Origin: a plasmid
Length of the DNA stretch: 64,000 bases
Direction: 5' to 3' (one strand)
Sequence record: NZ_CP120951.1
Made by a program: the position numbers and the translations under genes
Shown here: positions 7,639 to 42,605 of the stretch, piece by piece
How positions within the stretch are numbered: the first letter of the stretch is position 1
How the letters are laid out: every line of letters begins with the position of its first letter
Notes under the pieces: generated by a model
The model's database searches: none
What the model was told of the DNA's origin: nothing
What the model saw: the letters and a program-made list of their open reading frames with translations, nothing else

Positions 7639-7643
7639 CGTGC

Positions 7644-21141: not shown

Positions 21142-21154
21142 GACCGACTCCGTA

Positions 21155-21514: not shown

Positions 21515-21531
21515 CTTGCCCTCCAGTTGTT

Positions 21532-22470: not shown

Positions 22471-22499
22471 GATCGCCACCTATAGAAGTTAGCCGCCGC

Positions 22500-23171: not shown

Positions 23172-23214
23172 GCTGGTTCTCCTCGCCGACCCCGTGTCGG
23201 CCTATCCCGCATCA

Positions 23215-26030: not shown

Positions 26031-26100
26031 CAGTTCGCTCGTCAGCACGATTCCCCCTCTGGTCTTATGCTCAAGCCGCCCCAATTCATCGACGTTTTCA

Positions 26101-26550
26101 TCACAGCACACCCTCCGCTTCCGTCGCCAGACGTTCTTCCTCGAGCTCGGCCTTGAAGCGCGCGATGAATCGCTCTTGCAACTCAAGCGAAAGCGGTCGC
26201 GCTAGCTGCTCGCGGATCTGCCGGTACGAACGCCCGTAACGCATCGGCGCGAGCGTGTACGTCTTGCCAAACAGCGACGCATTCTTGCGACGTAGCACAC
26301 ACATGAGTTCGAACCACGTGATCCGCAGTGCCTGGTCATCAGTCGCGCAGACGTGCTTGAAATACATGATGATCGGCACGCCCGGCAGACCGAGCACGAA
26401 TCCGCCCGGCCCCATGAAGGCCGCGCCCGCGAGCGAAAAGAACATGCTCGCGACGAACACGGCCAGTCCGGGCAGCAGCGGGATACCCCACTGCATCGCG
26501 GTCCGGTTCAACCCCGCGTAAGACGGATACAAGGTCTTCTCGGTGCTCAT
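26101..26550 (-). CDS. virB3: VirB3.
   Basis: 149 aa with a membrane hairpin, upstream of virB4. Confidence 0.75.
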   Translation of the reverse strand: MSTEKTLYPSYAGLNRTAMQWGIPLLPGLAVFVASMFFSLAGAAFMGPGGFVLGLPGVPIIMYFKHVCATDDQALRITWFELMCVLRRKNASLFGKTYTLAPMRYGRSYRQIREQLARPLSLELQERFIARFKAELEEERLATEAEGVL

Positions 26551-26556
26551 CGCCGA

Positions 26557-26880
26557 TCAGCTCCCACCGGCCGAGAAGAGCCAACCAGCCAGCACCACGG
26601 CTCCGCCGCAGACAAACACCTTGACACACGACATCCCGAAATCGTGCACCCAGTCGCCGCCTGCTTTAAACGCTGCGATCCCTTCCTTGATCAGGTAGAG
26701 GGCAGCGACGATCGCAGCGCACGCGTACAACCAGATCTGCAAGGTCGACAGCCCCTGCTTCCCCGTGTCGAGGCCACCCGCCTGGGCGCTGACAGCAACG
26801 CCGGTCAAAGCGATCGCAACCAGCGTTTCGCGCACGCACCGCTGGTCGAGCGGCGCAAACAATTTCTTCAGATAGTTCAT
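26557..26880 (-). CDS. virB2: VirB2 pilin.
   Basis: It has a long signal peptide and two hydrophobic helices. An AAGGAG RBS is present, with an ATGA overlap to virB1. Confidence 0.75.
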   Translation of the reverse strand: MNYLKKLFAPLDQRCVRETLVAIALTGVAVSAQAGGLDTGKQGLSTLQIWLYACAAIVAALYLIKEGIAAFKAGGDWVHDFGMSCVKVFVCGGAVVLAGWLFSAGGS

Positions 26881-27584
26881 TCCCGGTTCTCCTTTGTCGC
26901 TCCAAAATCCCCAAATACATCCCAACCTGAACCTTTCGAAGGTGCGCCGGCTGCCGCATCGCCCTTCGTCACACGCTTTACGCGCCGCGCGGGCGCCCCG
27001 TCCGGTACAACCGCGATCGCCGGCACCGCAGCGGCCGGCGCATCGGCCGACGTTGCCGTGTTACCCGATGTAGGTTCCCGCGTCAGCTTCCCGGCGTCGC
27101 TCTGCTGCGTCTGCGGCGACGCCTGCGCGACCACGCGCTGCACGTAGCTCGTGCCATCCTTCTCGATCTTGAATCCGCGCTGAATGTTGCCGCTGTAGTA
27201 GCAGGACAACGCGTGGCGCAACGCCCGTTGCCCGGGACCTGCCGCGATCGACGCGCGCCGGTAACAGTCGGCCAGGATCTCGCTGCCTGCACGCAGGTTT
27301 GCGCATGGATCGAATGCAGCGCCGCCAACCAGCCCATAGCGAGCAAAGTTCGCGCGATTCACCTGCGCCAGGCCGACGCTGTAATTCCAGCCAGCTCGCT
27401 CGAGTGCTGCGGCCGTCGCTTCGGCTTCGGCCTGCGTGCGCGGCTGGCGCACGAGACGTCCGCCAACCACACCGATCGCAAACGGATTCGCGCCGGATTC
27501 GTTGCGTACGACAGCTGAGAGCGTCACCGGGTGAACGGCTGGCGCACACGTCGACGCGAGTACAGGAAGATCGATCGCAATCAT
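26877..27584 (-). CDS. virB1: VirB1 lytic transglycosylase.
   Basis: An SLT-domain-like N-terminus, a Pro/Ala-rich C-terminus and a GGGAGG RBS. Confidence 0.75.
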   Translation of the reverse strand: MIAIDLPVLASTCAPAVHPVTLSAVVRNESGANPFAIGVVGGRLVRQPRTQAEAEATAAALERAGWNYSVGLAQVNRANFARYGLVGGAAFDPCANLRAGSEILADCYRRASIAAGPGQRALRHALSCYYSGNIQRGFKIEKDGTSYVQRVVAQASPQTQQSDAGKLTREPTSGNTATSADAPAAAVPAIAVVPDGAPARRVKRVTKGDAAAGAPSKGSGWDVFGDFGATKENRE

Positions 27585-27586: not shown

Positions 27587-28213
27587 TCAGTGCCTCCCAC
27601 CGCCGCCAAAAAATCCCTGGTCGTTGCGTTGCTGGTATTCCTTCAGGAACTCGGCACCGGCCTTTGTCGGGTCATACGCCGGATACGGCGTCGGGCCCAC
27701 GTAGTTTTCCGTGATGGTGTGCGGGCCGCCCTGGATGTTCCCGATCAGCCCACCGCCATTTACGCCCCACCACACTCGCGTATGCAGCTGGCCGTTGATC
27801 ATCACGTTGATCGCACCAGAAGCCTTACATACGAGTTCGCTCTGCTCGTGGCCCCCCCAACCCACCAGATCCTTTCGGCAATAGCCACCGCTTGCCCACG
27901 TATTCGACGCCGACGACCCTTTGCCATAGCTTTCGAGTGTTCCCGGTTCAAACGCGTCGACGAGTTCCGCCGGCAGGCTCGCGAGTGACGCCACCAGGTC
28001 GCAGGTCGGAAACGGGTTGCCATGGCGCAGTGCGTCCCACAGCTTCTCGATCGGCGGCACGCACTCTTTCTCCGATTCCGGCCCGCGCGGATCCGACAGG
28101 CAAATCAACACCTGACACCCCCAGCCATCTGCGAGCGCCACGCGCGCTGGCACCAGCGTGACGACCGCGATCGCAGCAAGCAGGACCACACGCTTCAGTC
28201 GAAATTTCTTCAT
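27587..28213 (-). CDS. Secreted protein of unknown function.
   Basis: It has a signal peptide and conserved cysteines. The start overlaps the upstream stop. Confidence 0.5.
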   Translation of the reverse strand: MKKFRLKRVVLLAAIAVVTLVPARVALADGWGCQVLICLSDPRGPESEKECVPPIEKLWDALRHGNPFPTCDLVASLASLPAELVDAFEPGTLESYGKGSSASNTWASGGYCRKDLVGWGGHEQSELVCKASGAINVMINGQLHTRVWWGVNGGGLIGNIQGGPHTITENYVGPTPYPAYDPTKAGAEFLKEYQQRNDQGFFGGGGRH

Positions 28214-28518
28214 GTCCGCGCTCCGGCGTCCGAGGCATCAGGCCATGCATGGAAGAAACCTCGCGCCGATGCCGGCACCTGCATGAGCGGCACCACATGA
28301 CGGCGAGTCGAGATCATGTCCCGGTACAGTTCCTCGAGCTGCTTGCGCTGATGCTCATGCAGGTCGAAGGCGTGACCGGCTGTGCTGACCTCGAGCGGGC
28401 GTCGACGCAGCCGATTGATCGCAGCTTCGACTTGCAGCAGCGTAATCGGGGTATCGGCCGATGCTTCTTTGGCATGAGCCGGAGCTCGTGCCTGATCGGA
28501 TCGAGAGGGCCGTGGCAT
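28210..28518 (-). CDS. Hypothetical small protein.
   Basis: An AAGGAG RBS precedes the ATG at 28518. Confidence 0.4.
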   Translation of the reverse strand: MPRPSRSDQARAPAHAKEASADTPITLLQVEAAINRLRRRPLEVSTAGHAFDLHEHQRKQLEELYRDMISTRRHVVPLMQVPASARGFFHAWPDASDAGART

Positions 28519-28529
28519 CACATCGCTCC

Positions 28530-29687
28530 TTATTGCGCGCCGGTAGTGAACGACCAGGACGTCGAGATCGGCGAGCCGTCGCGTGCGCCGGCAAACGTCA
28601 CCGTGTACTTCGTATTGGCCTTCAGCTGCGCAAGCGGCAGCAGAAAAGCAACGCCGGGCGAAAGTCCATTGTTCGGGTCAGCCGTAACAGAAGCGGTCGA
28701 CCCCGCCACCGCGCCTTGCGGAACGAGGATGCGAGCAGACACTGCTGCGCCGGTGTTGTCGACAAGCTGGAAGTTCGAAACCGTCAGCGTGTTCCCGGCG
28801 GCCGCGTTCACGCGGACCATGATGGGTCGGCCAGGCGCCCCCAGATCCGGTGCCGGATTCGGGACTTCCCCAAGCGTCAGTGCCGTCGCCACACCGGCCT
28901 CGTCAATGTACGGCGCGTGAACGATCAGGTTCGTCGCGAATTGCTGTCCACCGCTCGAAGGAATCGAGTTCGTTTGCGTCGGCACACTGAGATTCGGTGC
29001 GGCCGGAACACCCGTCGTCGTCCCCATGTCGAGAACGCAAAATGACCACATCGCCGGTTGCTGCCCGGCCGGCGGCGTCGTTACCGTCGTAGCGACACCG
29101 ACACCCATGCTTTCCGAGTTTGCGGTCACGCCTTGCAGGTGATAGACGCTGTTAAGCCAGGTATTCGCGCAATCTGCGCCAGTCGTTTGCACGACCGGCC
29201 CATAGCCGCTGAAGGCCACTTCGCCGACCCATTCAGTCGACGGCGCGCCGGCCACCTGCGCACGCTGAACCGGCGACGCACCGGTATAGCCCGGAAGCGA
29301 CGCGTTTTCGTCGTGACCCAGCGCAGAAATCGCGCGGCTCGGAACGTTTTGCAAACCATAGTTGGCGTGAGCGATCGCCGCCTTATCCAGATCCGCGTCC
29401 TGTTTCATCAAGCCAACACCCAATGCCTGACGATAGGCGTTCAACTTCGAAAAAATCGTCGCGCTGGGCGAATCGCTGGCATACGTCGGGGCAGGCACGC
29501 TGGTTTGAGGCGGCACGGACGTCGAGCTTCCAGGTGTCGGCGGCACTGCCGGCGTCGACGGTTGCGTGGCTCCTGCGTTCGAACCATTGCTTCCACCGTC
29601 ACCACCACCGCCCCCGCATGCGGACAACGCAATGGCTACAGCAACAGAGATCACGGCCAGCTTGATGACGTTCTTTTCGGTATTCAT
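28530..29687 (-). CDS. CAP/SCP (PR-1-like) domain lipoprotein with a C-terminal Ig-like region.
   Basis: A lipobox LSACGGG, a Pro/Thr/Ser-rich linker, a CAP-like core (HYTQVVW-type region) and a GAGGGG RBS. Confidence 0.6.
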   Translation of the reverse strand: MNTEKNVIKLAVISVAVAIALSACGGGGGDGGSNGSNAGATQPSTPAVPPTPGSSTSVPPQTSVPAPTYASDSPSATIFSKLNAYRQALGVGLMKQDADLDKAAIAHANYGLQNVPSRAISALGHDENASLPGYTGASPVQRAQVAGAPSTEWVGEVAFSGYGPVVQTTGADCANTWLNSVYHLQGVTANSESMGVGVATTVTTPPAGQQPAMWSFCVLDMGTTTGVPAAPNLSVPTQTNSIPSSGGQQFATNLIVHAPYIDEAGVATALTLGEVPNPAPDLGAPGRPIMVRVNAAAGNTLTVSNFQLVDNTGAAVSARILVPQGAVAGSTASVTADPNNGLSPGVAFLLPLAQLKANTKYTVTFAGARDGSPISTSWSFTTGAQ

Positions 29688-29775
29688 GAATGCCCCTCGG
29701 ATAAATGTTTTACACAACGATTAAGATGCTCTGCCTTGCCTTAAACGCGTCGAGCGCGCTGCACTTCCCATTCGC

Positions 29776-30600
29776 TTAATGCCCCCCACTACACGGGCCG
29801 GACCAGCTCTCGGGTGTTTTCCCGCCACACCGTGCAAAACCTATCGCCTCGTGGACGCCGATGACAGCCCCTGTATTCGGATCGGCTTCGCAGACAGCAG
29901 CCACAAAGTTCTGCACTTCCATACCGGAACCCGAGTCGAGCCCATAATCGAGACGTGCCCCCTTCACCACGACGAACTGTCCGTTCGTCGTGAACGAGAA
30001 CAGATTCCCGTTTTGCTTCGGCGGCGCATACACGCCGTTCCATGTGATTTTCCAATCGCTGTAGTTATTGGCAGTCCAGTAATGCCAGCGAAGGGTGTTG
30101 TTTGCCTCGAGCACCGGTGCGTCCGTCGCAGCGTTCGCATCAGTGATGCCGTACCCACCTTGCCGCTGCGCGATGGCTTGCGCGCATTGGGCGATCGGAT
30201 CGACAGCAGGCGGCGGAACAGACTGGCAACCGGGCTGCGTCCATTGCGACCCCGTCCAGGTCGGCGCTGCCGTCTGCAACATGCCAGCCGGACAGCTCGG
30301 CGGCGCCTGATAGCTGCACTGCGGCTGACTCCAGTGCGAACCCTGCCAAACCGCACTCCCCGTTGTGACCCATCCAGGTCCCTGCGCACATTGCGGCGCA
30401 GGGATCGGATCGTGATAGATCGGTGTCAGGCACGTGTTGTCCTGGTAGCCGGGCGAGCAGGTTACGGGCGTAGCACGAGCGTTTTGAATCGACAGCGTCG
30501 CTGCGATCGAGATCGTGAACAGCGCGAGCAACGGCCATCCGAACCGCCCAAATCCGCGATTCACTTCGCGGCAAGCTGCGTTGCTGTTGTTGCGTGACAT
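29776..30600 (-). CDS. Secreted Cys/Trp-rich protein with W-x-G-S-x-W-[ST]-Q-P-x-C repeats.
   Basis: It has a signal peptide and three copies of the WxGSxWxQPxC motif. A GAGGA RBS is present. Confidence 0.55.
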   Translation of the reverse strand: MSRNNSNAACREVNRGFGRFGWPLLALFTISIAATLSIQNARATPVTCSPGYQDNTCLTPIYHDPIPAPQCAQGPGWVTTGSAVWQGSHWSQPQCSYQAPPSCPAGMLQTAAPTWTGSQWTQPGCQSVPPPAVDPIAQCAQAIAQRQGGYGITDANAATDAPVLEANNTLRWHYWTANNYSDWKITWNGVYAPPKQNGNLFSFTTNGQFVVVKGARLDYGLDSGSGMEVQNFVAAVCEADPNTGAVIGVHEAIGFARCGGKTPESWSGPCSGGH

Positions 30601-30618
30601 GGTTCAATTCCTCGATCG

Positions 30619-31920
30619 TCAGTACGCGCAGTACGTTGCGGCAATCCCCTGCGCTCCGGGAATCCCATTTCCGACACCATCAGTCAGGTGAACCTGCCAC
30701 CCATTGCCTGTCCACGTCGCAGGTCCTGCATTCACGACGCTGGTCTCATTCACCCTGAAGTTTTGCGGGGTGACTTGAATCTGCATTGATCCGCCGTTCG
30801 GACACGTCGGTTGGGGCACCCACGTGGCATCCCACACCGTGTAATACCCATACCGCAGCCAGCGGCCGCCGATCGGCATCCACGTTCCGAACTGGCAAGA
30901 GAGAATCTGCCCCGACCCATCGCTATTCGCGGCGATCGCTCCGTTCGGAGAGCACGCTGTCGACGCGACGGCGATATTTCCGGCCTGCAACGTGCCCTGC
31001 ACGCCCAGCGACCCTTTACCGTTGGCGCCACTGACCATCAAGTGGTTGTCGCCGTCATTCATCAGGCGCATGTTGAAATCCTGCGCACCCTTACCGCCGT
31101 AATGGAAATCGACATAGGGCACCTGACCTGGATGGGTGCCGCTCATGTCACCCAGCTCGAGCGAACCGCCTTGGTCCCCGTTCATCCCTGCGCCATTTGC
31201 GAGCCGAAATGTGTTTGCGTTGACGACGTCGGCACCATTGATGCTGTGCTGCGCTCCGGTCGTATCTGTCATGCTCAGGTCCGTCTGCATCGCATTGAGA
31301 TCCGGCCGACCCGGCTTCATGTCGACCCGATACAGGTAGCCGTTGTCGCTCGGCGCATCGCCCACTCCGACCATCATCGCGAGATGGCCACTGCCCGGAT
31401 TCGCGTACCCCGTGAGCGACTGGCGGAATGACCCGCCTGCGCCGATCGCAACGGTTGGCTGCATCGTCGCGTCGCCGGCCTGATTCGCGTACGGCACAAA
31501 GCCACCGAGATTGCCGCGACCGCTCGATTGCGACGCGAGCGGCACCAGCTTCTGCGGCGGGATCGCCGTGCCACCCGTCGTGAACAGCATCGTCTGCAGC
31601 TTGCCCGGTTGCGGCTGCAGCACCTGCGCCGCCCACTGCTGTCGAAACACGTTCGCCGTGCTCATGCCGGACGGCAGATAGCCGCCAGCCTGCAGGTCGG
31701 AAACCGTCACGTTGGCCGGCTGCGTCGGCGTCGCGACCGCAGCCAAGTCCGCACCGTGATCCTTCACGTAGCGGCCCAGCGCCGCACCCATGACCTGCGC
31801 CTGGTTCGCCGCGCCGGCGACCTGAATTGAATCCGCAGACCGCTGCAGCCACGCGAACAGCACCGAAGCCATCATGAGCCACATCAACGTACCGGCCAGA
31901 CTGCCGAGCATTTCGCCCAT
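30619..31920 (-). CDS. pilV: PilV-like thin-pilus tip adhesin / minor pilin.
   Basis: Prepilin-like hydrophobic N-terminus and a long Gly/Asn-rich body. An AGGAG RBS is present. It is the last gene of the thin-pilus cluster. Confidence 0.6.
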   Translation of the reverse strand: MGEMLGSLAGTLMWLMMASVLFAWLQRSADSIQVAGAANQAQVMGAALGRYVKDHGADLAAVATPTQPANVTVSDLQAGGYLPSGMSTANVFRQQWAAQVLQPQPGKLQTMLFTTGGTAIPPQKLVPLASQSSGRGNLGGFVPYANQAGDATMQPTVAIGAGGSFRQSLTGYANPGSGHLAMMVGVGDAPSDNGYLYRVDMKPGRPDLNAMQTDLSMTDTTGAQHSINGADVVNANTFRLANGAGMNGDQGGSLELGDMSGTHPGQVPYVDFHYGGKGAQDFNMRLMNDGDNHLMVSGANGKGSLGVQGTLQAGNIAVASTACSPNGAIAANSDGSGQILSCQFGTWMPIGGRWLRYGYYTVWDATWVPQPTCPNGGSMQIQVTPQNFRVNETSVVNAGPATWTGNGWQVHLTDGVGNGIPGAQGIAATYCAY

Positions 31921-32232
31921 CGCTTACTCCTGTTGCCCGCCGCGCGCGAAGCGCGGCGTAGCACTCGAATGCACCGTAGATCAGCCATCCAATCACCTCG
32001 AACAGCTGAACCGCACCAAACACGGCCACCATCGCCAGGCCGAGCGCAGCGGCGATGCGCGACCCGACCGCATCGGCGGGCATCTTCAGAATCTCCGCTA
32101 TCGCCGGTTCAAACGCCCATTGATAGACGAAGATCATCACGATCACGCCAACCACCAGCCGCGCAATGACCATGACAACCTGTTCGACCCGCGTCGGTAC
32201 CGGTTCGGCAGACTCCCTATCCAGATTCCCGG

Positions 32233-32703
32233 TCACGGCGTCACCCTCCCTTGATAGAGCAGCGTGCCGGCCACGAACGTCGTCGGTACGTTGATCGTCT
32301 GCCCACCGATCAGCGCCTTCGCTGTACCGCTCGCCGGCACCGCATACCAGAACGCCGGATTGTTGAGGCGCTCCATTAGCACGCCCGCCGCACCCGGCAA
32401 CGTCGGTACGCCCGCGAACACCAACCGCCCCGCACCGTCCGCGCGCGTCACGCAGTTCGCGCCAGGCAGCGCGGTCAATCCGGACGGCCATGTCACGACC
32501 AGCGCGTCGCTCACCAAACCAGGCTGCGCCTGCGCGCTTGCTACACACGCTGCCGCAAATACTTCTGCCTGCAGCGCACGCGTCTCGGCCCTGCTGTCCG
32601 CGCGCGCGTCCGCTCCGGCAACACGCCCGACCGCGCGCTGCTCGCCTGCGATCAGGCTCAACGCCAACATCAACACCACGAGCGGGAGCAGCGCGTAGCC
32701 CAT
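32233..32703 (-). CDS. Pseudopilin-like protein with an N-terminal hydrophobic helix.
   Basis: 156 aa with a TGGAG RBS. It lies adjacent to the PilT-like stop. Confidence 0.45.
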   Translation of the reverse strand: MGYALLPLVVLMLALSLIAGEQRAVGRVAGADARADSRAETRALQAEVFAAACVASAQAQPGLVSDALVVTWPSGLTALPGANCVTRADGAGRLVFAGVPTLPGAAGVLMERLNNPAFWYAVPASGTAKALIGGQTINVPTTFVAGTLLYQGRVTP

Positions 32704-33732
32704 TTAGAACTCCACATCCAGCGATGCGTTATTCAACAGGCGCGTATGCCGATCAATCTCCGTTGACAGCTGACGGAAATCCGTTCCGTGCAGTTGCGAT
32801 CGAATGCCCTTTTCGTTGCGCGACCCTGCCACGATCAGCGGCGTCACATGCAACTTCCGCTGCATTGCGCCGTCGCGCTCCGTCAAAAGCAGGCTCTGGT
32901 GAATCACCGCGCCAATCCCTTGCGCAAACAAACCCGCATCTGCGCCGGCGTCGCGCACCATGCTCGCGAGACGCTGCAGCCCGGTAATCTGATCGGCAGC
33001 GTGATACGTCGCAATCACCAGCACGCCGGACGCCGCCGCGAGCAATGCCTGTACAACGGCATCGGCCGTACGTAGCTCGCCAACCATGATCAAGTTCGGC
33101 GCGCCACGCTGACGCCTACGGATTTCCGGACCGAACTCAGTGTCCTCATCCACTTCCTTCTGATACAGCGTGCCGGTTGCGTCTTCACCGCGGTACACGC
33201 CCTCGATTTCCACTTCGATCGGGTTCTCGATCGTGTAGCCCACCCCGCCGTACCGTTTCATCCATTCGACGGTCAGCGACGTCGCACCAACCGTCTTGCC
33301 ACTCGACGTACCGCCCGAGATCAGGACGACACGACCGCGCATCGAGGGCGACAACAACGCGCGTTCAATTCGATCACCGTAGCCAAGCGTGTCGAACGCG
33401 AGTGCAGCCGGCGCATGGCGGCGCAGCACGTACAGCGGTCCTGCGATCGTCTCGAACCGCGCGCCTCGCATCGACAGCCCGTCCCACTTCAGACGGAAAT
33501 CGTTCTTCGTGACCGTCGTCTCGATGTGCTGTTTCAGCACTGCGATCGCATCGCGTTGCTCGAAGCCGATTTCATGCCGAACCGGGTCATTTGCGTAGGT
33601 CTTGAACCACGCGCTGTCGCCCGCTTCGAGATACAGGTCCGAAAAACTCAGCGCCGCGAGCGAGCCGTCTCCAGCCCCTTCGGTCCACTCGCGCGGCTCA
33701 GCTTTCCCAAACGCATATTCATTCGACAGCAT
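32704..33732 (-). CDS. PilT/PilU-family (retraction-type) ATPase.
   Basis: Walker A (GGTSSGKT) with Asp and His boxes. An AGGAGA RBS precedes the ATG at 33732. Confidence 0.7.
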   Translation of the reverse strand: MLSNEYAFGKAEPREWTEGAGDGSLAALSFSDLYLEAGDSAWFKTYANDPVRHEIGFEQRDAIAVLKQHIETTVTKNDFRLKWDGLSMRGARFETIAGPLYVLRRHAPAALAFDTLGYGDRIERALLSPSMRGRVVLISGGTSSGKTVGATSLTVEWMKRYGGVGYTIENPIEVEIEGVYRGEDATGTLYQKEVDEDTEFGPEIRRRQRGAPNLIMVGELRTADAVVQALLAAASGVLVIATYHAADQITGLQRLASMVRDAGADAGLFAQGIGAVIHQSLLLTERDGAMQRKLHVTPLIVAGSRNEKGIRSQLHGTDFRQLSTEIDRHTRLLNNASLDVEF

Positions 33733-33802
33733 CGTTACTCTCCTATGACATCTATCGACAGGCCTTGCGCCGCTCGCACCGCGCAAGGCCGCCGTGCTTC
33801 CA

Positions 33803-34297
33803 TCAGCTGAACGTGATCTGGATCGTGGTGTTGTTGCTGCACACCTGAGCAGCATTAACGCCATCCGGCAAAGCATTTCGTGTAAACGTCGTCCCGCCGA
33901 TCACGAGCGTGTCGTAGTCGCGCAACGTCGTCACCAGTTGCGAGCAGTCCTTCTGATTGTTGATGCCTGCCAAGGTGATCACGCCTTGACCGTTGTTGTT
34001 CGTAGGTGCCAGCGTGATGGCGCCGGCCCATTTGTTAACCAGGTTCCCGTTGCGTACCATCCCAGGCGGCACGATGCTGTTCTGAATCAGGTACGCGGCA
34101 TTCCCCGTAGTGAAATTCGCGTATCCATTGGGCGTTTCGCCCAGCTGCTGCCTTGCCGCCCCTTGCAGCAACGTGATGTCGCTCACCTGCGACGAAACCT
34201 TGTTGCCACCCGACGCGGCATAGATCACGCCAGCGGCGGCCGCCATACTCAACAGCACCAACAGCTTGCCGTACCAGGTTGCCAGTAAGTCACCCAT
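33803..34297 (-). CDS. pilS: Major pilin candidate (PilS-like type IVb pilin).
   Basis: 164 aa with a hydrophobic N-terminal helix and C-terminal cysteines. An AGGAGA RBS is present. It sits between the pilR and pilT-like genes. Confidence 0.5.
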   Translation of the reverse strand: MGDLLATWYGKLLVLLSMAAAAGVIYAASGGNKVSSQVSDITLLQGAARQQLGETPNGYANFTTGNAAYLIQNSIVPPGMVRNGNLVNKWAGAITLAPTNNNGQGVITLAGINNQKDCSQLVTTLRDYDTLVIGGTTFTRNALPDGVNAAQVCSNNTTIQITFS

Positions 34298-34349
34298 GTC
34301 CTTTCTCCTACGCTACGCTTGCGATACCCAAAATTGATGACCGCCGTGC

Positions 34350-35450
34350 CTACATTCCGATCGAGCCGGCCATGTTCCCGATCAAACCGTTACTGGCGAG
34401 CTGCACAAGGCCGATCACCACGAAAATCACGAACAAACAAATTCCACCGATCGTCTTCGAGATCCGGCGCATGCGCTTTTCCAGGACCTCAGCATGCGTA
34501 TGCGCGAGGCTCTCCAATGCGTCGGCGCCACCTTCCGCGCCGTCCAGCGTCGCGATCCGCTCGATCAAATCGAGGGATGGAAAGCCGAGTCCCGAGCGCC
34601 GCAGGGAATCGCCCAACGGATGCCCTTCGACCAGCGCCCGGTACACCGGCCGCAGCCGTGATGCAAGCCAGGGCGACGCACGACGAATCTGCTGCGCGAT
34701 CGCATCGGCCTGCGGCACGCCACCCTTGACCTGCGTGACCAAATTCAGCAACCACCGCGTGCCCTCGAACTCGCGGTACACCGTAAAAACAAAGTACGCT
34801 TCCTCGACCCAAACACGCATGCGTGCAATCCAGCGTGGCAACGCCTGGACGGTCGCCGTGGCGAACACCGTCGCCAGCACTGCCGCGATCACCGGCGCGT
34901 AGCCTTGTCCGAGATCACCAAACCAGCCGAGCAAGGCCGTCCATCCCGTCCACTTCTCTCGCGGCAAAATCAGTTCGATCGACGGCATCACTTGCTCACC
35001 GACGACATAGAAAAATCCGTACATACAAACCATGTACACAATCGGATCGATGATGCTCGACCACGCGACCGACTGAATTCGGAGAATCCGCGCGCGCGTG
35101 TCGATGATTTGCTGCATGGCCTTCGGGAGGCCGCCCGCGCTCGACCGCTCACCGATCTCCAATACGCTGCGCTCCATATCAGGCAAACCATGGCCCAGCG
35201 CCTGCGCGAACGACGCCCCGTCCTCGAGCGCCAGATACACGCGGTGGATCTGCTGGGCCGCTGCCCGCTTCTTGCGACGCAAAAGGCTCTGGCGAATCAA
35301 CATCAGCACCTGTGTGGGCGTCCGTCCTTGTGGCAGCAACTGGATCGCGTCCTCATAAATCCGAAGCCGCAGCGCCCACGACAGTGCCTTTTCACGCTGA
35401 CGGCGGCGGTTGAACAACGAGCCGAACAACGGCAGCGAAAATCCGTTCAC
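34350..35450 (-). CDS. pilR: PilR/GspF-family inner-membrane platform protein.
   Basis: Three TM segments and GspF-like repeats. A GTG start overlaps the pilQ stop. Confidence 0.7.
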   Translation of the reverse strand: MNGFSLPLFGSLFNRRRQREKALSWALRLRIYEDAIQLLPQGRTPTQVLMLIRQSLLRRKKRAAAQQIHRVYLALEDGASFAQALGHGLPDMERSVLEIGERSSAGGLPKAMQQIIDTRARILRIQSVAWSSIIDPIVYMVCMYGFFYVVGEQVMPSIELILPREKWTGWTALLGWFGDLGQGYAPVIAAVLATVFATATVQALPRWIARMRVWVEEAYFVFTVYREFEGTRWLLNLVTQVKGGVPQADAIAQQIRRASPWLASRLRPVYRALVEGHPLGDSLRRSGLGFPSLDLIERIATLDGAEGGADALESLAHTHAEVLEKRMRRISKTIGGICLFVIFVVIGLVQLASNGLIGNMAGSIGM

Positions 35451-37138
35451 GGTGCAAGCTCCTCGAAGGTCGGCAGGCGTTCGTCGTTTCGGGCATCAAC
35501 GCTAAGCTGAGACTGCGCCGCATTCGGATCGACGCGACCGGCCAGCACGTTCGCGACCGCATACGCCAGCATCGAGTAATCCGTATCCGGTCGAGCGCGG
35601 TGCCGGCGCTTCACCTCATCGAGCGGCAACGTCCGCAGGTCCGACATCAACGCGACATCCGTTTCGATGATTTCAGCGGCGACCACCCGCCCGACTGTCC
35701 CCAGTCCATCGCAGTGCTCGCAACCGGGCCCGCGCACATGGACGTTCAGCGTGTCGCCCCAGGTATTGAGCGCGCGCAGCACTTCGTCGGGCACGGCATC
35801 GTCCGCGGCGTCGACGAGCGGCACGCGGCAGTGTTCGCACAGCCGCGGCAGCAGCCGCATGCCGATCACGGCGATCACCTTCTCCGGGTTGCACGTATTG
35901 CGGCGCGACAACCGTTCCGGGTCCATGTCCTCGAGGCGCTCGAAGAAGTAGTACGGGTCGATGACGTGCAGCGTGGTCAGCACAAGACGGCCTGTCAGCG
36001 CTGCCTCAAGTGCCGTATGTGCTTCCTCCGGCGCACGCAGCTCGCTAACCAGCAGCATGTTCGGATCCATGCGCAGCGTCTCGCGCAGCAGATCCATGAA
36101 GGAGTGCACCCCAACGACCAACTGAACGTCCCATTCCTTCTCGAACTCGGGCGGATCTTCCATCGCGATCTGACGACGTTCCGGAAAGCGCTGGGCGATA
36201 TAGCGCTCCATATGGAAAATCGCCTGCGTCTTGCCGCTACCCACCGGCCCCGTCAATCCCACCAGTCCGTTAGGGCGGTGCGAGATGCGCCGCATCCGTT
36301 CGACCTGCGCGGGCGCGAACCCTTTCCACGCGGGATCGTTCTCCGGTTGTTCGGGACGAGTCGGCGCTCTGAGCCGCAACTCCCGGATCGCATCCCGACG
36401 CGACTTGTTCGGCACCGCGTCCGGACGACGTTGCAACCGGGCCACGAGGAATCCGCCGCCGTGTGTAATCGGCACGGACGGCCCGCGAATAATCCGAACT
36501 GTCGACAGCGCCGTACCCACGAGCGTCTCACCATCGATCTGTGCGTCCTGGAAGTCCAGCGGCTTCAGCTCGGGCGGCTTGTTCGTCGCGAGCCCCTGAT
36601 AAATCGCGCCGATCAGCCGCCGACCTTCGTCAGCGTGCATCGAGAACGCGTCTGACGTGTGCAGATCGCCGTGGATCCGCACCTGCACGTCCGTATGCCG
36701 ACGACGCACCAAAATATGTATGTCGCTGGCGCCAGCGGCTGCGGCCAGTGACAACAGCAACAGCGCCCTAGCCTGCGTGGCCTGCATCGGATCGTCGCGC
36801 CGCGCAATCGCATGCTGACCACGCAGCCGCTCAAGTGCATCGACCGTGACCGAGTCGACGGCGTAACCGATCTTCAGCTCATCGAGGCGCTTCAACCACG
36901 TCCTCACGGCCGCCGAACTCTTGACGCGATGGTCGATGTAGATCATCGCCTTGACGTCAGCATCACCTGCGTTGTCCGACATCGCAACAACGACACTCGA
37001 CTGCAGATGCTCCGGCACGTCGATTCGATCGGGGCGCGCGCCGATCACCGGCACCATGCTTACTGGAGACGACGCAGAGGCGTCAGGCGCAACCAGCGCC
37101 ATCGCATCCGAAACGATCAGCGTCCGCGGCGACTTCAT
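35447..37138 (-). CDS. pilQ: PilQ/GspE-family assembly ATPase.
   Basis: Walker A (GPVGSGKT), Cys tetrad and GspE signature. The start is refined to the ATG at 37138 with a GGGAG RBS and an ATGA overlap to the upstream gene. Confidence 0.85.
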   Translation of the reverse strand: MKSPRTLIVSDAMALVAPDASASSPVSMVPVIGARPDRIDVPEHLQSSVVVAMSDNAGDADVKAMIYIDHRVKSSAAVRTWLKRLDELKIGYAVDSVTVDALERLRGQHAIARRDDPMQATQARALLLLSLAAAAGASDIHILVRRRHTDVQVRIHGDLHTSDAFSMHADEGRRLIGAIYQGLATNKPPELKPLDFQDAQIDGETLVGTALSTVRIIRGPSVPITHGGGFLVARLQRRPDAVPNKSRRDAIRELRLRAPTRPEQPENDPAWKGFAPAQVERMRRISHRPNGLVGLTGPVGSGKTQAIFHMERYIAQRFPERRQIAMEDPPEFEKEWDVQLVVGVHSFMDLLRETLRMDPNMLLVSELRAPEEAHTALEAALTGRLVLTTLHVIDPYYFFERLEDMDPERLSRRNTCNPEKVIAVIGMRLLPRLCEHCRVPLVDAADDAVPDEVLRALNTWGDTLNVHVRGPGCEHCDGLGTVGRVVAAEIIETDVALMSDLRTLPLDEVKRRHRARPDTDYSMLAYAVANVLAGRVDPNAAQSQLSVDARNDERLPTFEELAP

Positions 37139-38385
37139 GCCTTCGCTCCCGCCGGTACCGGCAATGGTCGCGCGACTGCGGGAGCGGCCGGCAACTTCGT
37201 CCACGCATACAGCGTGCCCTGTGCACTCCACTCGCCCTTGATAACGTCGTACACGACCGCGGCAAGCCGCAAGCCGGGTGTCGCATCGAGATCTGCGCTG
37301 TATCGCATCCAAGGCGGTGCCACGAAAGTAAAAGCGACACCACGTGTTTGCCACGGCAGCACATCGACGTCGCGCGTGTTGCCATTCGCGTCGGGCTTCG
37401 GCGGCGGATCCAGCGTGAGCGGGACGGCACGCGTTTGCGAAAACGTCAGAATCGTGCGGCGTGCGAGATCGGCAAGTACGGCTGGCGCCGACGACGGCGA
37501 CCAGGTCATCGCTTGCGTCAGCGACTCCTGCGAATGATCGGGATCCGTCAGCACACCTGGCGCGTCAAGTGCAGTACCGCCAGCACGCGTCCAGCTCACC
37601 GTCAGCGCGAGCATCTCGCCCTGCTGCTCGCAGCGCCAGTTCGCGATCGTCCACCCGTCGCGTGCGAGTGCTTGAGCATGCCACGCGCTCGCGCAGGCAC
37701 TCAGCAGTGCCGAAGGCGCCGGCAGCTTCGTCCACGGCGGAATCGCCGCGTCGGCCTCGCGCTTCGCACGTCGGGCGTCTGCTTGCCGCTGCAATTCGGC
37801 GAGACGCTGCTCCTCCTGTTGATGCGCCAACCACAAAGCGCCCCCGACGCCAACCACTGCGATTGCCAACACCGCAGATAGCACCCAGACGATCTGCGGC
37901 ACCGATGCCTGCAGGTCGCGTAATCCGCGCTCAGGCGTCGCGAGCCCGACGATTTCCGCGAGGTGCGCGACCGTCCCATCGTGTTCGTGCCAGCTTTCTT
38001 GCGCCCGCAGCGCATCGCGCGCGGCGATTACATCGCCGCGATCGCCGAAATGATCGCCACCAGGAACGATTTCGCCGTCGCGAACGGCAATCAACCAGTA
38101 GGCGTCGTCGGTCAGCTTGAACACACCCATCCACGGCGACGGATACTGCTCGGCCGCAAGGCTTGCGAGTGCCCGGATGCGGCCCACTCCCTTTGTGCCT
38201 GGCGGCAGTTCGCCGTAGCCGGCCTGGTAGACGCCGGTCGCCGTGTGACGCACGACGCCAAAGCGGCCGAGCCGTCGAGCGCGTTCACGCAGCGCGGCAG
38301 GTTTCGGTTTGACAGGCTCGTGCTCCCATGTGAGGCCGAGCGCGTAGCGCGCGGTCGATTCGGGGAGCGTCACGATCGTGAGCAT
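37135..38385 (-). CDS. PilO-like bitopic membrane protein.
   Basis: 416 aa with a central TM helix. Named from its position in the cluster. Confidence 0.45.
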   Translation of the reverse strand: MLTIVTLPESTARYALGLTWEHEPVKPKPAALRERARRLGRFGVVRHTATGVYQAGYGELPPGTKGVGRIRALASLAAEQYPSPWMGVFKLTDDAYWLIAVRDGEIVPGGDHFGDRGDVIAARDALRAQESWHEHDGTVAHLAEIVGLATPERGLRDLQASVPQIVWVLSAVLAIAVVGVGGALWLAHQQEEQRLAELQRQADARRAKREADAAIPPWTKLPAPSALLSACASAWHAQALARDGWTIANWRCEQQGEMLALTVSWTRAGGTALDAPGVLTDPDHSQESLTQAMTWSPSSAPAVLADLARRTILTFSQTRAVPLTLDPPPKPDANGNTRDVDVLPWQTRGVAFTFVAPPWMRYSADLDATPGLRLAAVVYDVIKGEWSAQGTLYAWTKLPAAPAVARPLPVPAGAKA

Positions 38386-38387
38386 GG

Positions 38388-38990
38388 TCAGAACCTCACC
38401 CACCGCACACGGCCACCGCGCGCCAGCTGAACGCCGTTGCCCTCGATGCGTGCAACTTTCCAGCCATCATCGAGCGTGTCGCCGACTCGCACATCACGCG
38501 CAACACCACTGATCACCAGCGTCGCCATCGAGCGGCCGTCATACGAACCCGTGCCGGCCAACGTCATGTCGCTGATTGCCGACGTCCGAATGCCGATCGG
38601 CGGCGTACCAGGAATGGGCGAGGCCGTGGCCGGTAGCGGGTTGTTCAGCGCGAGAGGCATGCCGCTCGACGCCGGATTTTTCGCCTTGTCGATCGCCGCC
38701 TCGACCTCGGCGATCTCTTTTTTGACGCGCAGCACTGAAAGGCGCGACTGGAGCGCAGCGAGCTCGTCGCTGTCGGTCGTGCTCGCCACGGCTGCAGGTG
38801 CCGATGCAGGAATTGCGACAGCTACAGTGCTGCTGGCTTGCGACGCCGGTGCCGCGCCCGCGGGAACTGGGAGCGCCGGCGCACCGTTCGCGCGCGGATG
38901 GACTGCGAGCAGCAACGCGAACGCAAGCAGTGAGCCCGCCAGCACGGGCACGCGCACGGGTGACGGATGGGTACGCAGTCGGATATTCAT
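38388..38990 (-). CDS. PilP-like periplasmic protein (secretin-interacting).
   Basis: A signal peptide and a C-terminal GWKVARIEGNGVQL motif typical of PilP/GspC-like domains. Confidence 0.5.
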   Translation of the reverse strand: MNIRLRTHPSPVRVPVLAGSLLAFALLLAVHPRANGAPALPVPAGAAPASQASSTVAVAIPASAPAAVASTTDSDELAALQSRLSVLRVKKEIAEVEAAIDKAKNPASSGMPLALNNPLPATASPIPGTPPIGIRTSAISDMTLAGTGSYDGRSMATLVISGVARDVRVGDTLDDGWKVARIEGNGVQLARGGRVRWVRF

Positions 38991-38998
38991 TCGAGGCC

Positions 38999-40648
38999 TC
39001 ACAGCAGTCGCGCGGTGATCACGATCGCCAGCAGCGTGCGCTGCTGGCGCGCGTCGACGCCGCCGCCCAGGATGGGATTGAAGGGCGAACCCACGCCGTT
39101 GTCCTGCGTGCTGTTGTCCGAACGCTGCATGCCAACCAGCACGAGCGATTCGCCGGGTTTCAGCGGCACGATCTGCTGCAGGTCGTAATTCTTCAGATGG
39201 GGCATCTGCAAGCACGACTGCGTGCTGTTCGAATTGCAGCCGGCCGGCAACGACACCATCTCGATCAAGCGACTCAACGTGAGCGAAAAATCCATCACGA
39301 TCGTGCCGTTGACGAGTTTGGGCAGAAACTGACCGGTAAACCCGACCGGCTGGAACTGGCCAGTCGCGGACGACGATGACCCGACGTTTGCGGCGAGCGT
39401 GCTTTGCGTCTGCGGCAGATACGGGATCTGCTCGCCGTCCTGCAGCGTGACCTTCTTGCCGTTTTGCGTGACGCCCGCGTTCGACAGCAGCGTGGTGACG
39501 TTACCGAGACTCGACAGCGCCTTGACTGCCCCCTTGGTGCCCGAGAACGGGCCAGACAGGATGTTTGCGCCGAAGCTCATGCCCGAGCCGCCACCGCTGA
39601 TCGCGGGGACCGCCGCGCCGGTGATACCGACCGACGTGTGGCCGGTCGCGCTCTTGTAGCCGAGCGCGAGATCCAGGCCATAGTTCTCGTCATGGTCCGT
39701 CTGAACCGAATACAGGTGGATGTCCACCGCGATCGTCTTGCTGTACATCGCGGTCAGCGATTTCATCCAGCCGTCGACCGCGTCGCATTGCGCGGGCGTG
39801 CCCGTCACGACCAGCACCCCGAGGTCGGGATCCGCCGTCACCGTCGCGCCGCTACCGGCGATCGCCGAGGCAGTCGTCTGCAATTGCTTCCACGGTGCGA
39901 TCGTGACTTTCAGCGTAGAGAGCTGCGAATTCCCGCCAGACGTACCGCCCGAATTACCGCTTCCGCTCGATCCGCTCGCGCCGTTCGACGAATTCGAGCT
40001 GGTCGTGATCGAGCTTTCCATTCCCGACGTTTCCGAGAGTGCCGGCAACGGGAACACGCGAGTTTCGCGCTTGAAGAATGTGATCACGCCATCGCGATAG
40101 CGATGCCAGACACCGAAGCGAGCCTGCTGCTGATCGAGGAACCCCTTGAACGTGCCCTTGTAGGTCAGCACGCGCGCCGAGTCGAGGTTAACCGCGCCCA
40201 CTGCTGTCGGCAGGATCGGTTGGCCAGCGGGGATGCCAGGCACGCCCGGCGGCAGCGGCGACGACATCGCACCGCCAGTCGGCGCCGAAAACGACGTTGG
40301 CACCGACGCCGAGCTGGTGGCAGACGAATCGATCTCGGTGCGCACGCCCGTCGTGCGCGTGATCCACTGAGCAACCTCCGCAAGCGAACCGGCCGGATAC
40401 GTATAGGACACCGCCTTGTCGTAAATTGCCGGCTGCGGCTTTCCTGCTACGATCTGTTCACCCATCAGCCACGCGCGCTTATGCATCTTGACGACGGGGC
40501 GACTCGTCGGCGCTTGAGCGATCTGAGCACGAGCCTGATCGGTCACTGCTTGCTGTTCGTTACGAATGTCGCGAATCGCGCATGCGGTCAGCGTCAAGGC
40601 CAGTGCCGGCGCCAAGGCGAATGCGGGATGCAGGAAGGAAGCTCGCAT
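38999..40648 (-). CDS. pilN: PilN-like secretin lipoprotein.
   Basis: A lipobox LTLTAC. The C-terminal half has the secretin domain pattern. 549 aa. Confidence 0.75.
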   Translation of the reverse strand: MRASFLHPAFALAPALALTLTACAIRDIRNEQQAVTDQARAQIAQAPTSRPVVKMHKRAWLMGEQIVAGKPQPAIYDKAVSYTYPAGSLAEVAQWITRTTGVRTEIDSSATSSASVPTSFSAPTGGAMSSPLPPGVPGIPAGQPILPTAVGAVNLDSARVLTYKGTFKGFLDQQQARFGVWHRYRDGVITFFKRETRVFPLPALSETSGMESSITTSSNSSNGASGSSGSGNSGGTSGGNSQLSTLKVTIAPWKQLQTTASAIAGSGATVTADPDLGVLVVTGTPAQCDAVDGWMKSLTAMYSKTIAVDIHLYSVQTDHDENYGLDLALGYKSATGHTSVGITGAAVPAISGGGSGMSFGANILSGPFSGTKGAVKALSSLGNVTTLLSNAGVTQNGKKVTLQDGEQIPYLPQTQSTLAANVGSSSSATGQFQPVGFTGQFLPKLVNGTIVMDFSLTLSRLIEMVSLPAGCNSNSTQSCLQMPHLKNYDLQQIVPLKPGESLVLVGMQRSDNSTQDNGVGSPFNPILGGGVDARQQRTLLAIVITARLL

Positions 40649-41194
40649 TTAGTCGTTCCCCGCTTCGTGGACCACGAATGTCCGGTTATCCAAATAGCCA
40701 TCGCCTCGAACGTCAGCGCCATTGGCTGCCAAGTCCTCGAGGACCTTCGTCGCGGCCTCCGGAAAATCACCGGCGTAATCCGCGTCGTTCGGCACGATCC
40801 AGTCAGGGCCCACGTTCCAGGACAGCGACCACCCGTCCGATTTCGCCCACTCACGCAGTTGAGATTCGAGCGACACTCCGCCGGTCAGGTGGTGGAGCGG
40901 CTTGGGCGGCGCATCGACGACTGGCGCCTCCACAACCGTTTCGGACGGCGACAGCGAAGCGGCTGGCGCGACATTGCTCGCCGCGTTCTGCGCGATAAGC
41001 GTGGCAGGCGAACCAGACGACAGCGGCGGAACCGCAGCAACCGTCAATGAGGGACTGGCCGACGCCGCGGGTGCCGGTGGGTTGTAGCGCGGCAGGTACG
41101 GTGCGAGATGTATTGCCGGCGAGTTCGACGTTGCCAGTTGGTCACCCGCGATCGCCGTCGCACTCGTCGCGAGTGCGGCACCGATCACGAGCAT
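40649..41194 (-). CDS. PilM-like periplasmic protein.
   Basis: A signal peptide. Named from its position between the pilL and pilN homologues. Confidence 0.45.
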   Translation of the reverse strand: MLVIGAALATSATAIAGDQLATSNSPAIHLAPYLPRYNPPAPAASASPSLTVAAVPPLSSGSPATLIAQNAASNVAPAASLSPSETVVEAPVVDAPPKPLHHLTGGVSLESQLREWAKSDGWSLSWNVGPDWIVPNDADYAGDFPEAATKVLEDLAANGADVRGDGYLDNRTFVVHEAGND

Positions 41195-41210
41195 GCCTCG
41201 CAACGTGCCA

Positions 41211-41771
41211 TTAATGTGCGCGTGCATCGCTCGCCCCCTTCGGCACCTGGGCCAGATTCGTCGACGCGGCTCCGAACAGCGGCTTGCCGTTCAGATCGTT
41301 CGCGTCTGTGACGATCCAGGTCTTGCCGTCAGCCACCTGCAAAATCGTGAGTGGATAGCCCGCATCGGAAACGGCGGCCAAGATCGACTTCATCGCGGCT
41401 GCCAGATCACCCGCGACATGACTGTCGGCGGTCACCGGCACCTGCAGCGACGTCATCCAGCGCATCGTCACGCCAGTCATACTGGCCCAGCGGGCGAGCG
41501 AAACAGACAACGTCTTGTCGTCCGAGCGCAGATCGAAGCCCGGCGCGTTCGGAGCGATGGCGGCAGCAAGCGCGGTAGAAGTCGGCGCGCGCGGCTGCGT
41601 TGTGGCCGGCGGAAGCGTGCACACTCGTTGATAGCGCCCGGTGGTCTGACGCGCAACCGGCGCCCAATCTGCCGAACCATCAACTCCAGCAGCACAGCCG
41701 GACAGGACAATCATGGCGAACGCGGCAACACCGCCAGCGAACGGCATGCGCGAAAATCGTGGCCGTTTCAT
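41211..41771 (-). CDS. PilL-like lipoprotein.
   Basis: A lipobox VLSGCAAG. First gene after a 280-nt promoter-like gap. Confidence 0.5.
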   Translation of the reverse strand: MKRPRFSRMPFAGGVAAFAMIVLSGCAAGVDGSADWAPVARQTTGRYQRVCTLPPATTQPRAPTSTALAAAIAPNAPGFDLRSDDKTLSVSLARWASMTGVTMRWMTSLQVPVTADSHVAGDLAAAMKSILAAVSDAGYPLTILQVADGKTWIVTDANDLNGKPLFGAASTNLAQVPKGASDARAH

Positions 41772-42050
41772 CGAATCTCCGGGATATCGGTAACGACTGG
41801 CGATCGCAACCTTCAGAAAGCGCAAGTAGCGCGCGGTGTAGAAAACGCCTGACGCAAAACCACCGCGTCCGGCAAAGCCGCCGCCATGCCCTAAAGTGAG
41901 GGGAGTCGGGATAGCGCGGCACGAGGTACGGTAATTACGCCGGCTGGCGCCTGCCAAATGCGTCGTGGCATCGCGCGACGCGCCCATGTGTTTAGCAATA
42001 CTAATAAACACACAATGACCGGCCGACGTGAGTGATTTCATCGGATGTCC

Positions 42051-42605
42051 CTATTCCGCCCCGGCTACCGCCAAGCGGCTCGTTTCATAGACCGCTGCCA
42101 TCGCTTCCGGTATCGAAACAGGAACGACCGGCTGCGTTGCCGTCACGCCAGGTGTGATTCGGAAGAGTTCGCGATAGACGCGTCGGGCGTACTGGACGCG
42201 CTTGTGCGGCGACGCCGCGTTGTATGCACCAACAGCGTTCCAGGTCAGCCCGAGGCGGGAGATGTTTTGCGAGAGGATCCACGCGCCAACGTAAGCGTTC
42301 GTGCACGCGTCGAGCAACGCCGTACGATCGATGCCGTAGCGAGCGAGCGTCGGCAGCCAACTAGAGTTGATCTGCATGAGCCCGATATCTTCGGACCCGT
42401 TGCGATTAACGTTGCGCGCGGACGGATTGAAACCCGACTCGACAGAGGCAATCGCTCTGACAAGATGCGGGTTCAGATGCTGGTAAGCAGCAGCGGCGTC
42501 AATACAATCGGCGCGCGCCGTTACTATCAGTAACGAATTCAGGGCAAACACGCAGCCCCAAAGGATGGCAGCACGCGACCGATCACGTACAATACCGAAA
42601 GCCAT
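42051..42605 (-). CDS. Lytic transglycosylase (SLT domain), the counterpart of R64 PilT.
   Basis: The SLT catalytic region (ESGFNPSA...GLMQIN) and a signal peptide. Confidence 0.75.
   Translation of the reverse strand: MAFGIVRDRSRAAILWGCVFALNSLLIVTARADCIDAAAAYQHLNPHLVRAIASVESGFNPSARNVNRNGSEDIGLMQINSSWLPTLARYGIDRTALLDACTNAYVGAWILSQNISRLGLTWNAVGAYNAASPHKRVQYARRVYRELFRITPGVTATQPVVPVSIPEAMAAVYETSRLAVAGAE

Follow-up and report, generated by a model that had tools for sequence, protein, structure and literature searches.

A type IVb (thin) pilus gene set at the head of a VirB/D4-type transfer array on a Burkholderia plasmid

The window analysed here is a stretch of 64,000 nt from the plasmid record NZ_CP120951.1, and its positions 42605-28530 encode, on the minus strand, an R64-related type IVb pilus set (pil genes). 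This region is best read as an accessory conjugative type IVb (thin) pilus module leading one transfer array, in the order pil, virB1-11, virD4, primase, and relaxase, on a ~70-kb Burkholderia plasmid, a reading with an estimated probability of about 0.75. Which genes are present, the families they belong to, their contiguity, and the conservation of their order in relatives are direct observations. The locus follows IncI2-like logic in a Burkholderia plasmid family and is not a novel hybrid. All pil, virB, and DNA-processing genes described below, as well as the small genes among them, lie on the minus strand.

Composition of the pilus block

The first gene of the block encodes a lytic transglycosylase (SLT; 42051..42605; PF01464, E 1.9e-21), which is 54-58% identical to the SLT preceding the pil genes of pRP6297_1 and pHG1 and 34-38% identical to PilT of R64/IncI2. 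It is followed by a PilL-like TcpQ-domain protein (41211..42041; PF10671 TcpQ, E 7.6e-11), the PilL-position protein of IncI2 being likewise annotated as TcpQ-domain, and by a second TcpQ-family protein (40649..41227; PF10671, E 1.1e-17) with 36-49% identity to TcpQ-family proteins of pHG1 and pRP6297_1. A preliminary description of this DNA, made from the sequence alone, had listed a series of pil genes in one minus-strand block. Profile matches recover these genes, but the one named PilM is the second TcpQ-family protein. Its identification as an R64 PilM homologue was rejected on account of the TcpQ-family match and the lack of a match to the NCBIfam PilM profile, and no R64-type PilM was detected.

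PilN, a lipoprotein secretin (38999..40648), matches PF00263 and TIGR02520 (PilN family, type IVB), the latter being its top NCBIfam match with a score of 212 bits, which is below the equivalog cut-off of 287.65. It carries the lipobox LTAC at residues 20-23, and its full-length identity is 26-27% to PilN of R64/IncI2 and 44-45% to that of pHG1/pRP6297_1. PilP (38388..38951) scores 43.7 bits against TIGR03021 (cut-off 34.65), and PilO2 (37135..38385) scores 107 bits against PF06864 (PAP_PilO; cut-off 26.7), with an E-value of 1.1e-30 and the whole profile covered. The gene order is N-P-O here, not N-O-P as first proposed.

The GspE-type assembly ATPase PilQ (35447..37138; T2SSE, E 7e-35, 120.7 bits) is 26-28% identical to PilQ of R64/IncI2 and 43-44% identical to that of pHG1/pRP6297_1. 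The GspF-type platform protein PilR (34350..35450) matches T2SSF in two stretches (E 3e-16, 59.9 bits), and the major pilin PilS (33803..34297) matches PF08805 (E 2.8e-10, 40.8 bits versus a cut-off of 22). As for PilV, the non-shuffling minor pilin or tip adhesin, it is located at 30619..31920 (PF04917 Shufflon_N, E 1.1e-28, 101 bits versus 27.5) and is 26-30% identical to PilV of R64/IncI2. It had earlier been placed at the 28530 end of the block, where the open reading frame (ORF) is in fact a CAP-domain lipoprotein. The original gene list also lacked this lipoprotein, a second ATPase (32704-33732), and three small ORFs. Its attribution of the cluster to the R64-type thin-pilus family is supported by the specific matches to the PilN-IVB, PilO2, PilP, PilS, and Shufflon_N profiles, on which an assignment to Tad/Flp or a type II secretion system was rejected.

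The second ATPase (32704..33732; T2SSE) has 342 aa, is PilT/BfpF-like, and occupies the PilT2 position, which makes it a putative retraction motor. Its top NCBIfam match is pilT_fam, its top PDB matches are PilT, and the Walker A, Asp, Walker B, and His boxes are all intact. An end-to-end alignment with the BfpF-position ATPase of an E. coli plasmid bfp operon gives 29% identity over 305 aa (E 3e-28). Homologues are present in at least 121 plasmids, including those of Burkholderia, Xanthomonas (pXCV183), and E. coli with bfp operons, and pXCV183 also has an ATPase between pilS and pilV. Judging from these similarities, the protein probably retracts the fibre.

Both pilins have short N-termini (MGDLLA|T in PilS and MGEMLG|S in PilV) with the hydrophobic helix directly after, and a long type IVb leader and a Glu at +5 are absent from PilS and PilV. 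A longer PilS leader is excluded because an in-frame TAG lies 12 nt upstream of the ATG and the start is preceded by a good Shine-Dalgarno sequence (AGGAGA). Such N-termini are common in the family: in an exhaustive homologue search the short M-x-x-[IL]-L-[GA] form was found in 72 out of 108 PilS-family cluster representatives, and the classical leader with G-x4-E in 23 out of 108, while a word-indexed search had returned only 4 close relatives. No Pfam match to an A24 prepilin peptidase (PilU) was obtained among the ORFs of the block, the ~104-aa ORF at 31922-32236 not being included. In 27500-33000 only short, chance-level repeats were found in place of shufflon or sfx-like repeats, and no Rci lies near pilV, the nearest integrase gene being at 54798-56636. 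All of these traits, the short-leader pilins, the second ATPase, and the lack of a peptidase and a shufflon, as well as the CAP partner of PilV, recur outside the window.

Linkage to the VirB/D4 transfer genes and plasmid setting

As the preliminary description stated, the pil block continues on the same strand into virB1-virB11 and virD4, which Pfam and NCBIfam matches bear out, and further into genes for a phospholipase D (PLD)-family nuclease, a primase, and a NikA/MOBP relaxase. Every long ORF with high GC content at third codon positions across 42605 -> 192 lies on the minus strand. Successive genes are separated by no more than 153 bp over 42605 -> 7644, and intergenic distances at the junction between pil and virB range from -4 to 88 bp. 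The bridge consists of genes for a DUF3717 protein (PF12512) and a 208-aa secreted protein (27587..28521), with distances between adjacent genes of -4 to 8 bp, and is conserved in Burkholderia contaminans. A promoter and terminator scan revealed no enrichment of terminator-like sites (12 observed vs 16.3 expected). Based on this layout, pil and virB are probably co-transcribed.

The virB1-virB11 genes (16813..27584; Pfam and NCBIfam matches) are arranged as VirB1 (SLT), VirB2-like, VirB3, VirB4, orf141, VirB5, VirB6, VirB7-position lipoprotein, VirB8, VirB9, VirB10, and VirB11. VirB4 belongs to the VirB4/CagE subfamily (TIGR00929, 441 bits), VirB11 scores 279 bits against TIGR02788 (cut-off 250), and PF05101, PF04610, PF04335, PF03524, and PF03743 are matched in the set of VirB3, B6, B8, B9, and B10. 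The VirB2-like ORF of 107 aa has no Pfam match but shares 32% identity with its counterpart at the VirB2 position in IncI2, and the 119-aa ORF at the VirB7 position has no family match and carries the lipobox VTGC. Three small ORFs separate virB11 from the PLD-family nuclease gene, which is followed by that of the VirD4 coupling protein (together 12280..15292; PF13091 and PF02534, E 1e-92, respectively). The DNA-processing genes (192..12287) encode a Toprim/DUF5710/LPD7 primase-like protein of 1547 aa, DUF1173, bPH, and NikA-like proteins, and a MOBP relaxase of 904 aa with a partial match to NF041893 TraI_MobP. According to these matches, the pore can be classified as a conjugative type IV secretion system (T4SS) of VirB/D4 type, i.e., mating-pair formation type T (MPF-T).

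Alternatively, the pil genes might form an element of their own that was inserted recently and simply happens to lie next to the virB operon. The sequence affinities suggest past modular exchange, the Pil proteins being nearest to those of pHG1 and Ralstonia, and VirB and the relaxase nearer to those of IncI2. However, no repeats, insertion sequences (IS), tRNA, or integrase bounding the block were found in the window: there are no long repeats at the block edges, and the sole tRNA of the window lies at 59252. GC content is even over pil and virB. In addition, the same junction genes (CAP, DUF3717, the 208-aa ORF, and virB1) occur in a B. contaminans plasmid, whose proteins are only 57-73% identical. 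Because bounding repeats, IS, tRNA, and integrase are lacking, GC content is even, and the gene chain is kept in B. contaminans plasmids, the block is not a separate inserted element. The independent-insertion explanation is thus hardly credible, and the preliminary view that pil and virB belong together holds.

The closest relative of the region is a 448-kb Burkholderia aenigmatica plasmid typed as MPF_T (94% nt identity), and the region is 81% identical at the nt level to a plasmid of Burkholderia sp. MS455. The same pil-to-virB order is kept in both and in B. contaminans plasmids (57-73% aa identity), so the synteny comparison with other Burkholderiaceae agrees with the layout described above. 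In B. contaminans the chain consists of SLT, two TcpQ proteins, PilN, a 180-aa ORF at the PilP position, PilO2, PilQ, PilR, PilS, the ATPase, an ORF, PilV, and CAP, and continues with DUF3717, an ORF, and VirB1 through VirD4 to the relaxase. Compared with B. aenigmatica, the VirB2-like protein (26557-26880) is 77% and PilV 87% identical, versus 95-99% for the neighbouring genes. Such lower conservation fits faster change in surface-exposed parts.

Outside 16062-37522 the window is ~100% identical to the B. contaminans plasmid NZ_CP082810.1 (49.3 kb). That plasmid lacks the 21.4 kb in between, from inside pilO2 to inside a 220-aa ORF after virB11, and the longest string shared within ~100 nt of the breakpoints has 7 nt. 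Either the entire mating apparatus has been deleted there, or the assembly has collapsed. Because of the ~100% match together with the 21.4-kb gap, the window is taken as most of a ~70-kb plasmid of B. contaminans type. No rep gene was identified in the scanned parts of the window, and the closest relative is typed as rep_cluster_526, not IncI2. The plasmid is therefore not assigned to IncI2. The IncI2-type combination of MOBP (MobC/NikA and LPD7 relaxase), MPF-T, and type IVb pilus is nevertheless present in the window.

Thin pili and their partner pores

In the preliminary description the thin pilus was regarded as the companion of a Dot/Icm-type (MPF-I) pore in IncI plasmids, and its linkage to VirB/D4 as an unusual hybrid. 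The former applies to IncI1 only, as IncI2 is typed MPF_T, and the latter does not hold: IncI2, pHG1, Ralstonia, Paraburkholderia, and B. cenocepacia plasmids pair the two as well. Among 72,556 plasmids, a PilO2 search yields 65 records, mostly from Burkholderia, Xanthomonas, Cupriavidus, Ralstonia, and Paraburkholderia. The pilus module lies beside VirB/Trb-type genes in pHG1, Ralstonia pRP6297_1, R. solanacearum pm01, B. cenocepacia pTY921B, and Paraburkholderia p3. The MPF types given by PLSDB are MPF_T for pRP6297_1 and pHG1 and MPF_F for pm01, with none given for pTY921B and p3; the order in p3 is IncI2-like, with virB, virD4, primase, and StbB before pil. The plasmids R721 and pHNSHP45 have the PLSDB type IncI2/MOBP/MPF_T, and pXCV183 pairs the module with MPF_I. 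According to a review, shufflon-bearing type IV pili occur in the plasmid taxonomic units PTU-I1, PTU-I2, and PTU-B/O/K/Z (PMC12282955). A thin pilus with MPF-T is thus an ordinary pairing that has long been present in published plasmid sequences.

Dot/Icm-type pores are accordingly not the only partners of thin-pilus modules. The partner is MPF-T in IncI2, pHG1, and the present family and MPF-I in R64 and pXCV183, and the module is also reported with systems of the integrative and conjugative element (ICE) type such as PAPI-1. The ICE PAPI-1 is of MPF-G type. Since the module is found with MPF-T, Trb-type, and MPF_I systems, it is promiscuous as to pore type.

The IncI2 plasmids R721, TP114, and pHNSHP45 resemble the window in carrying an R64-family pilus, a VirB/D4 MPF-T pore, and MobC/NikA with an LPD7-type MOBP relaxase in one strand block. 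The arrangement, however, is different: the pil genes of IncI2 are split, with pilL-pilM ahead of virB1 and pilN-pilV after virD4, whereas those of the window all come before virB1. In R721 and pHNSHP45 the single-strand order is TcpQ-domain PilL, PilM, VirB1-B4, VirB8-B11, VirD4, and then PilN, PilO2, PilP, and PilQ-PilV, with a site-specific integrase last, at the Rci position, and VirB5/VirB6-type genes upstream. IncI2 plasmids also possess PilT (SLT), the PilU peptidase, a shufflon with Rci, and long-leader Glu5 pilins, and have neither the second ATPase nor the CAP gene. Their Pil proteins are 20-28% identical to those of the window, and their replicon and host class differ.

Closer counterparts of the Pil proteins are provided by pHG1 (Cupriavidus necator H16), pRP6297_1, and pm01, which share the order SLT, TcpQ, PilN, PilP, PilO2, PilQ, PilR, PilS, 156-aa ORF, PilV, and CAP. 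Pil proteins of pHG1 and pRP6297_1 are 31-45% identical to those of the window, versus 20-30% for IncI2/R64, and pHG1/Ralstonia pilins have the same short N-termini. Their T4SS, in contrast, is of a different Trb-like lineage, with VirB4 only 23-27% identical to that of the window, and is oriented partly divergently in pHG1 and pm01 and downstream on the same strand as pil in pRP6297_1. Moreover, pHG1 and the Ralstonia plasmids have no second ATPase and a single TcpQ protein, whereas the window has two.

Identity to IncI2 pHNSHP45 amounts to 36% over 775 aa for VirB4, 41% for VirB10, 38% for VirB11, 35% for VirD4, and 41% over 318 aa for the relaxase; the PLD nuclease and the LPD7 primase-like protein are 48% and 35% identical to those of R64, respectively. 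Going by identity, VirB, VirD4, and relaxase are nearer to IncI2 than to pHG1/pRP6297_1, and the Pil proteins the reverse. The view of IncI2 as the nearest T4SS relative was, however, tempered: compared with 36% for IncI2, VirB4 identity reaches 41-59% in numerous small plasmids of MPF-T type from Robbsia, Caballeronia, Massilia, Ralstonia, Moraxella, and Xylella. Because these closer VirB4 relatives sit partly in plasmids too small for a pil cluster, this T4SS lineage has acquired, lost, or exchanged the pil module.

R64 itself (IncI1) has homologues of PilN, PilQ, PilR, PilS, and PilV with 24-30% identity and PilT as SLT, and shares PilO2 and PilP with the window at the profile-family level only. 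It differs in its Dot/Icm-type MPF-I pore, PilI/J/K, PilM, the PilU peptidase, the shufflon with Rci, and the order N-O-P, and, like IncI2, it has no second ATPase of this kind. Synteny with R64 pilI-pilV is therefore partial: the core homologues are there, but in the window P precedes O, and PilM, the peptidase, and shufflon/Rci are missing.

The 'pil2' clusters of PAPI-1 and pXCV183, whose order is L2 N2 O2 P2 Q2 R2 S2 T2 V2 M2 (PMC3984277), also have the second ATPase between pilS and pilV. Like the window, they have no dedicated peptidase and no shufflon, and their role is conjugative (PMC5297154). They differ in having the order O-P and PilM at the end, and the pXCV183 cluster is paired with MPF-I. 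PilS2 of PAPI-1 is reportedly processed by the host PilD (PMC3984277), and PilD of the host is also invoked for B. pseudomallei Tfp7, which has no peptidase of its own (PMC3984277). As for the bundle-forming pilus (BFP) of enteropathogenic E. coli, its BfpF-position ATPase shares 29% identity with the second ATPase along ~90% of the length, both being short PilT-class proteins of a type IVb operon. BFP is, however, an adhesion pilus and not a conjugative one.

Function of the pilus and neighbouring genes

A role in mating is the best-supported reading by analogy with IncI2, R64, and PAPI-1 (PMC7508951, PMC5297154). Without pilS, the IncI2 plasmid TP114 no longer mates in broth but still does so on agar (PMC7508951; see also PMC9045228), and its transfer in the gut is lowered more than 1000-fold (PMC7508951). 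The type IVb pilus of PAPI-1 is conjugative and binds lipopolysaccharide of recipients (PMC5297154). By this analogy, PilQ (ATPase), PilR (platform), PilO2, and PilP would build PilS filaments with PilV at the tip, which would exit via the PilN lipoprotein secretin with the help of the TcpQ-type proteins, SLT opening the murein. The pilus would bind recipients and hold mating pairs where contacts are unstable, e.g., in liquid, and the PilT/BfpF-like second ATPase would probably draw the cells together by retracting the fibre. DNA would then be passed by the VirB/D4 MPF-T pore and the NikA/MOBP relaxosome. The short-leader pilins may be processed by a prepilin peptidase of the host, if any is needed.

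Several observations weigh against a conjugative pilus. The promoter scan upstream of the array gave nothing above chance, and, without a shufflon or Rci, recipient-range switching in the style of R64 is absent. MOB-suite labels the relatives as "non-mobilizable", which is due to its not recognising their relaxase. In the ~104-aa membrane ORF between the 156-aa ORF and pilV (31922..32236, identified by alignment to B. aenigmatica), the stop is lost relative to B. aenigmatica through a 2-bp CG indel in a CG-run at ~31930-31940. The indel-bearing ORF extends to 31148 in another frame over pilV, whose Shine-Dalgarno sequence and ATG are intact. Finally, R64-type pil loci of S. enterica and the Tfp7 encoded on the B. 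pseudomallei chromosome have been discussed in terms of adhesion or biofilm formation (PMC3984277).

The last point suggests that the pilus might be an adhesion, biofilm, or host-colonisation organelle that serves the bacterial host and rides with the transfer genes while having little part in mating. The lack of a shufflon, the conservation of a CAP lipoprotein and a Cys-rich secreted protein beside pilV, and the presence of PAS and helix-turn-helix (HTH) regulators upstream are consistent with this explanation. However, the pil genes are packed tightly against virB, with overlaps and gaps of at most 88 bp, the linkage to VirB/Trb-type genes is kept in every plasmid relative examined, and the IncI2 and PAPI-1 experiments point to mating (PMC7508951, PMC5297154). 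A mainly adhesive function is thus rather unlikely.

The CAP-domain (SCP/PR-1-like) lipoprotein (28530..29687; PF00188, E 2e-7) has a C-terminal Ig-like domain and the lipobox LSAC. Its gene follows pilV in every betaproteobacterial locus inspected, including pHG1 (two copies), pRP6297_1, pTY921B, pm01, and the B. contaminans plasmid. The toxin-coregulated pilus (TCP) and CFA/III pili export TcpF and CofJ, and by the same token the type IVb machine could double as a secretion device for the neighbouring CAP or Cys-rich proteins. The position of CAP genes beside pilV in 6 out of 6 betaproteobacterial plasmids inspected would agree with such a function. The CAP protein, however, has its own lipoprotein signal (LSAC), the CAP gene lies on the strand opposite to pil in pHG1, pTY921B, and pm01, and no sequence relationship with TcpF or CofJ is seen, which makes secretion a very improbable function. 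The adhesion, secretion, and separate-element explanations are all less likely than a conjugative pilus.

A more specific proposal, which is doubtful at present, is that the Burkholderiaceae version forms a distinct subtype among conjugative type IVb pili. The PilT2/BfpF-like ATPase would make it retractile, and its pilins, with their 6-residue N-terminal M-x-x-I/L-L-G and no Glu5, may be unprocessed or non-canonically processed. This subtype would also have a fixed PilV and a conserved CAP partner, and its expression from the front of the virB operon would couple the production of fibre and pore. More generally, the locus marks a plasmid family that is probably able to mate in liquid or flowing settings, in the Burkholderia cepacia complex including clinical B. 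contaminans, and this ability would bear on gene spread in water systems and airways. The short-leader Glu5-less pilins, the second ATPase, and the CAP partner could inform studies of type IVb fibre assembly and retraction.

As for the remaining small genes of the block, a conserved membrane protein of 156 aa (32233..32703; no family match) is 36-37% identical to the ORF at the same position in pRP6297_1 and pHG1. A Cys-rich secreted protein of 274 aa (29776..30600) has no family match either. It was considered as a spare C-terminal segment of PilV, which was rejected for want of similarity to PilV. PHROGs and NCBIfam scans of the small ORFs were uninformative.

Just upstream of the pil-virB array lie divergent genes for a PAS-domain protein (43797-44771) and an HTH regulator (~43381-43791). 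Both are also present in the relatives from B. aenigmatica and B. contaminans and might regulate transfer. KorA, a ParB/KorB-type protein, and ParA are also encoded upstream of the transfer genes. A tRNA-Gly (TCC) gene at 59252-59325 adjoins a DUF6402 gene and is situated ~2.6 kb downstream of the gene for a 612-aa DUF3701-type integrase (54798-56636).

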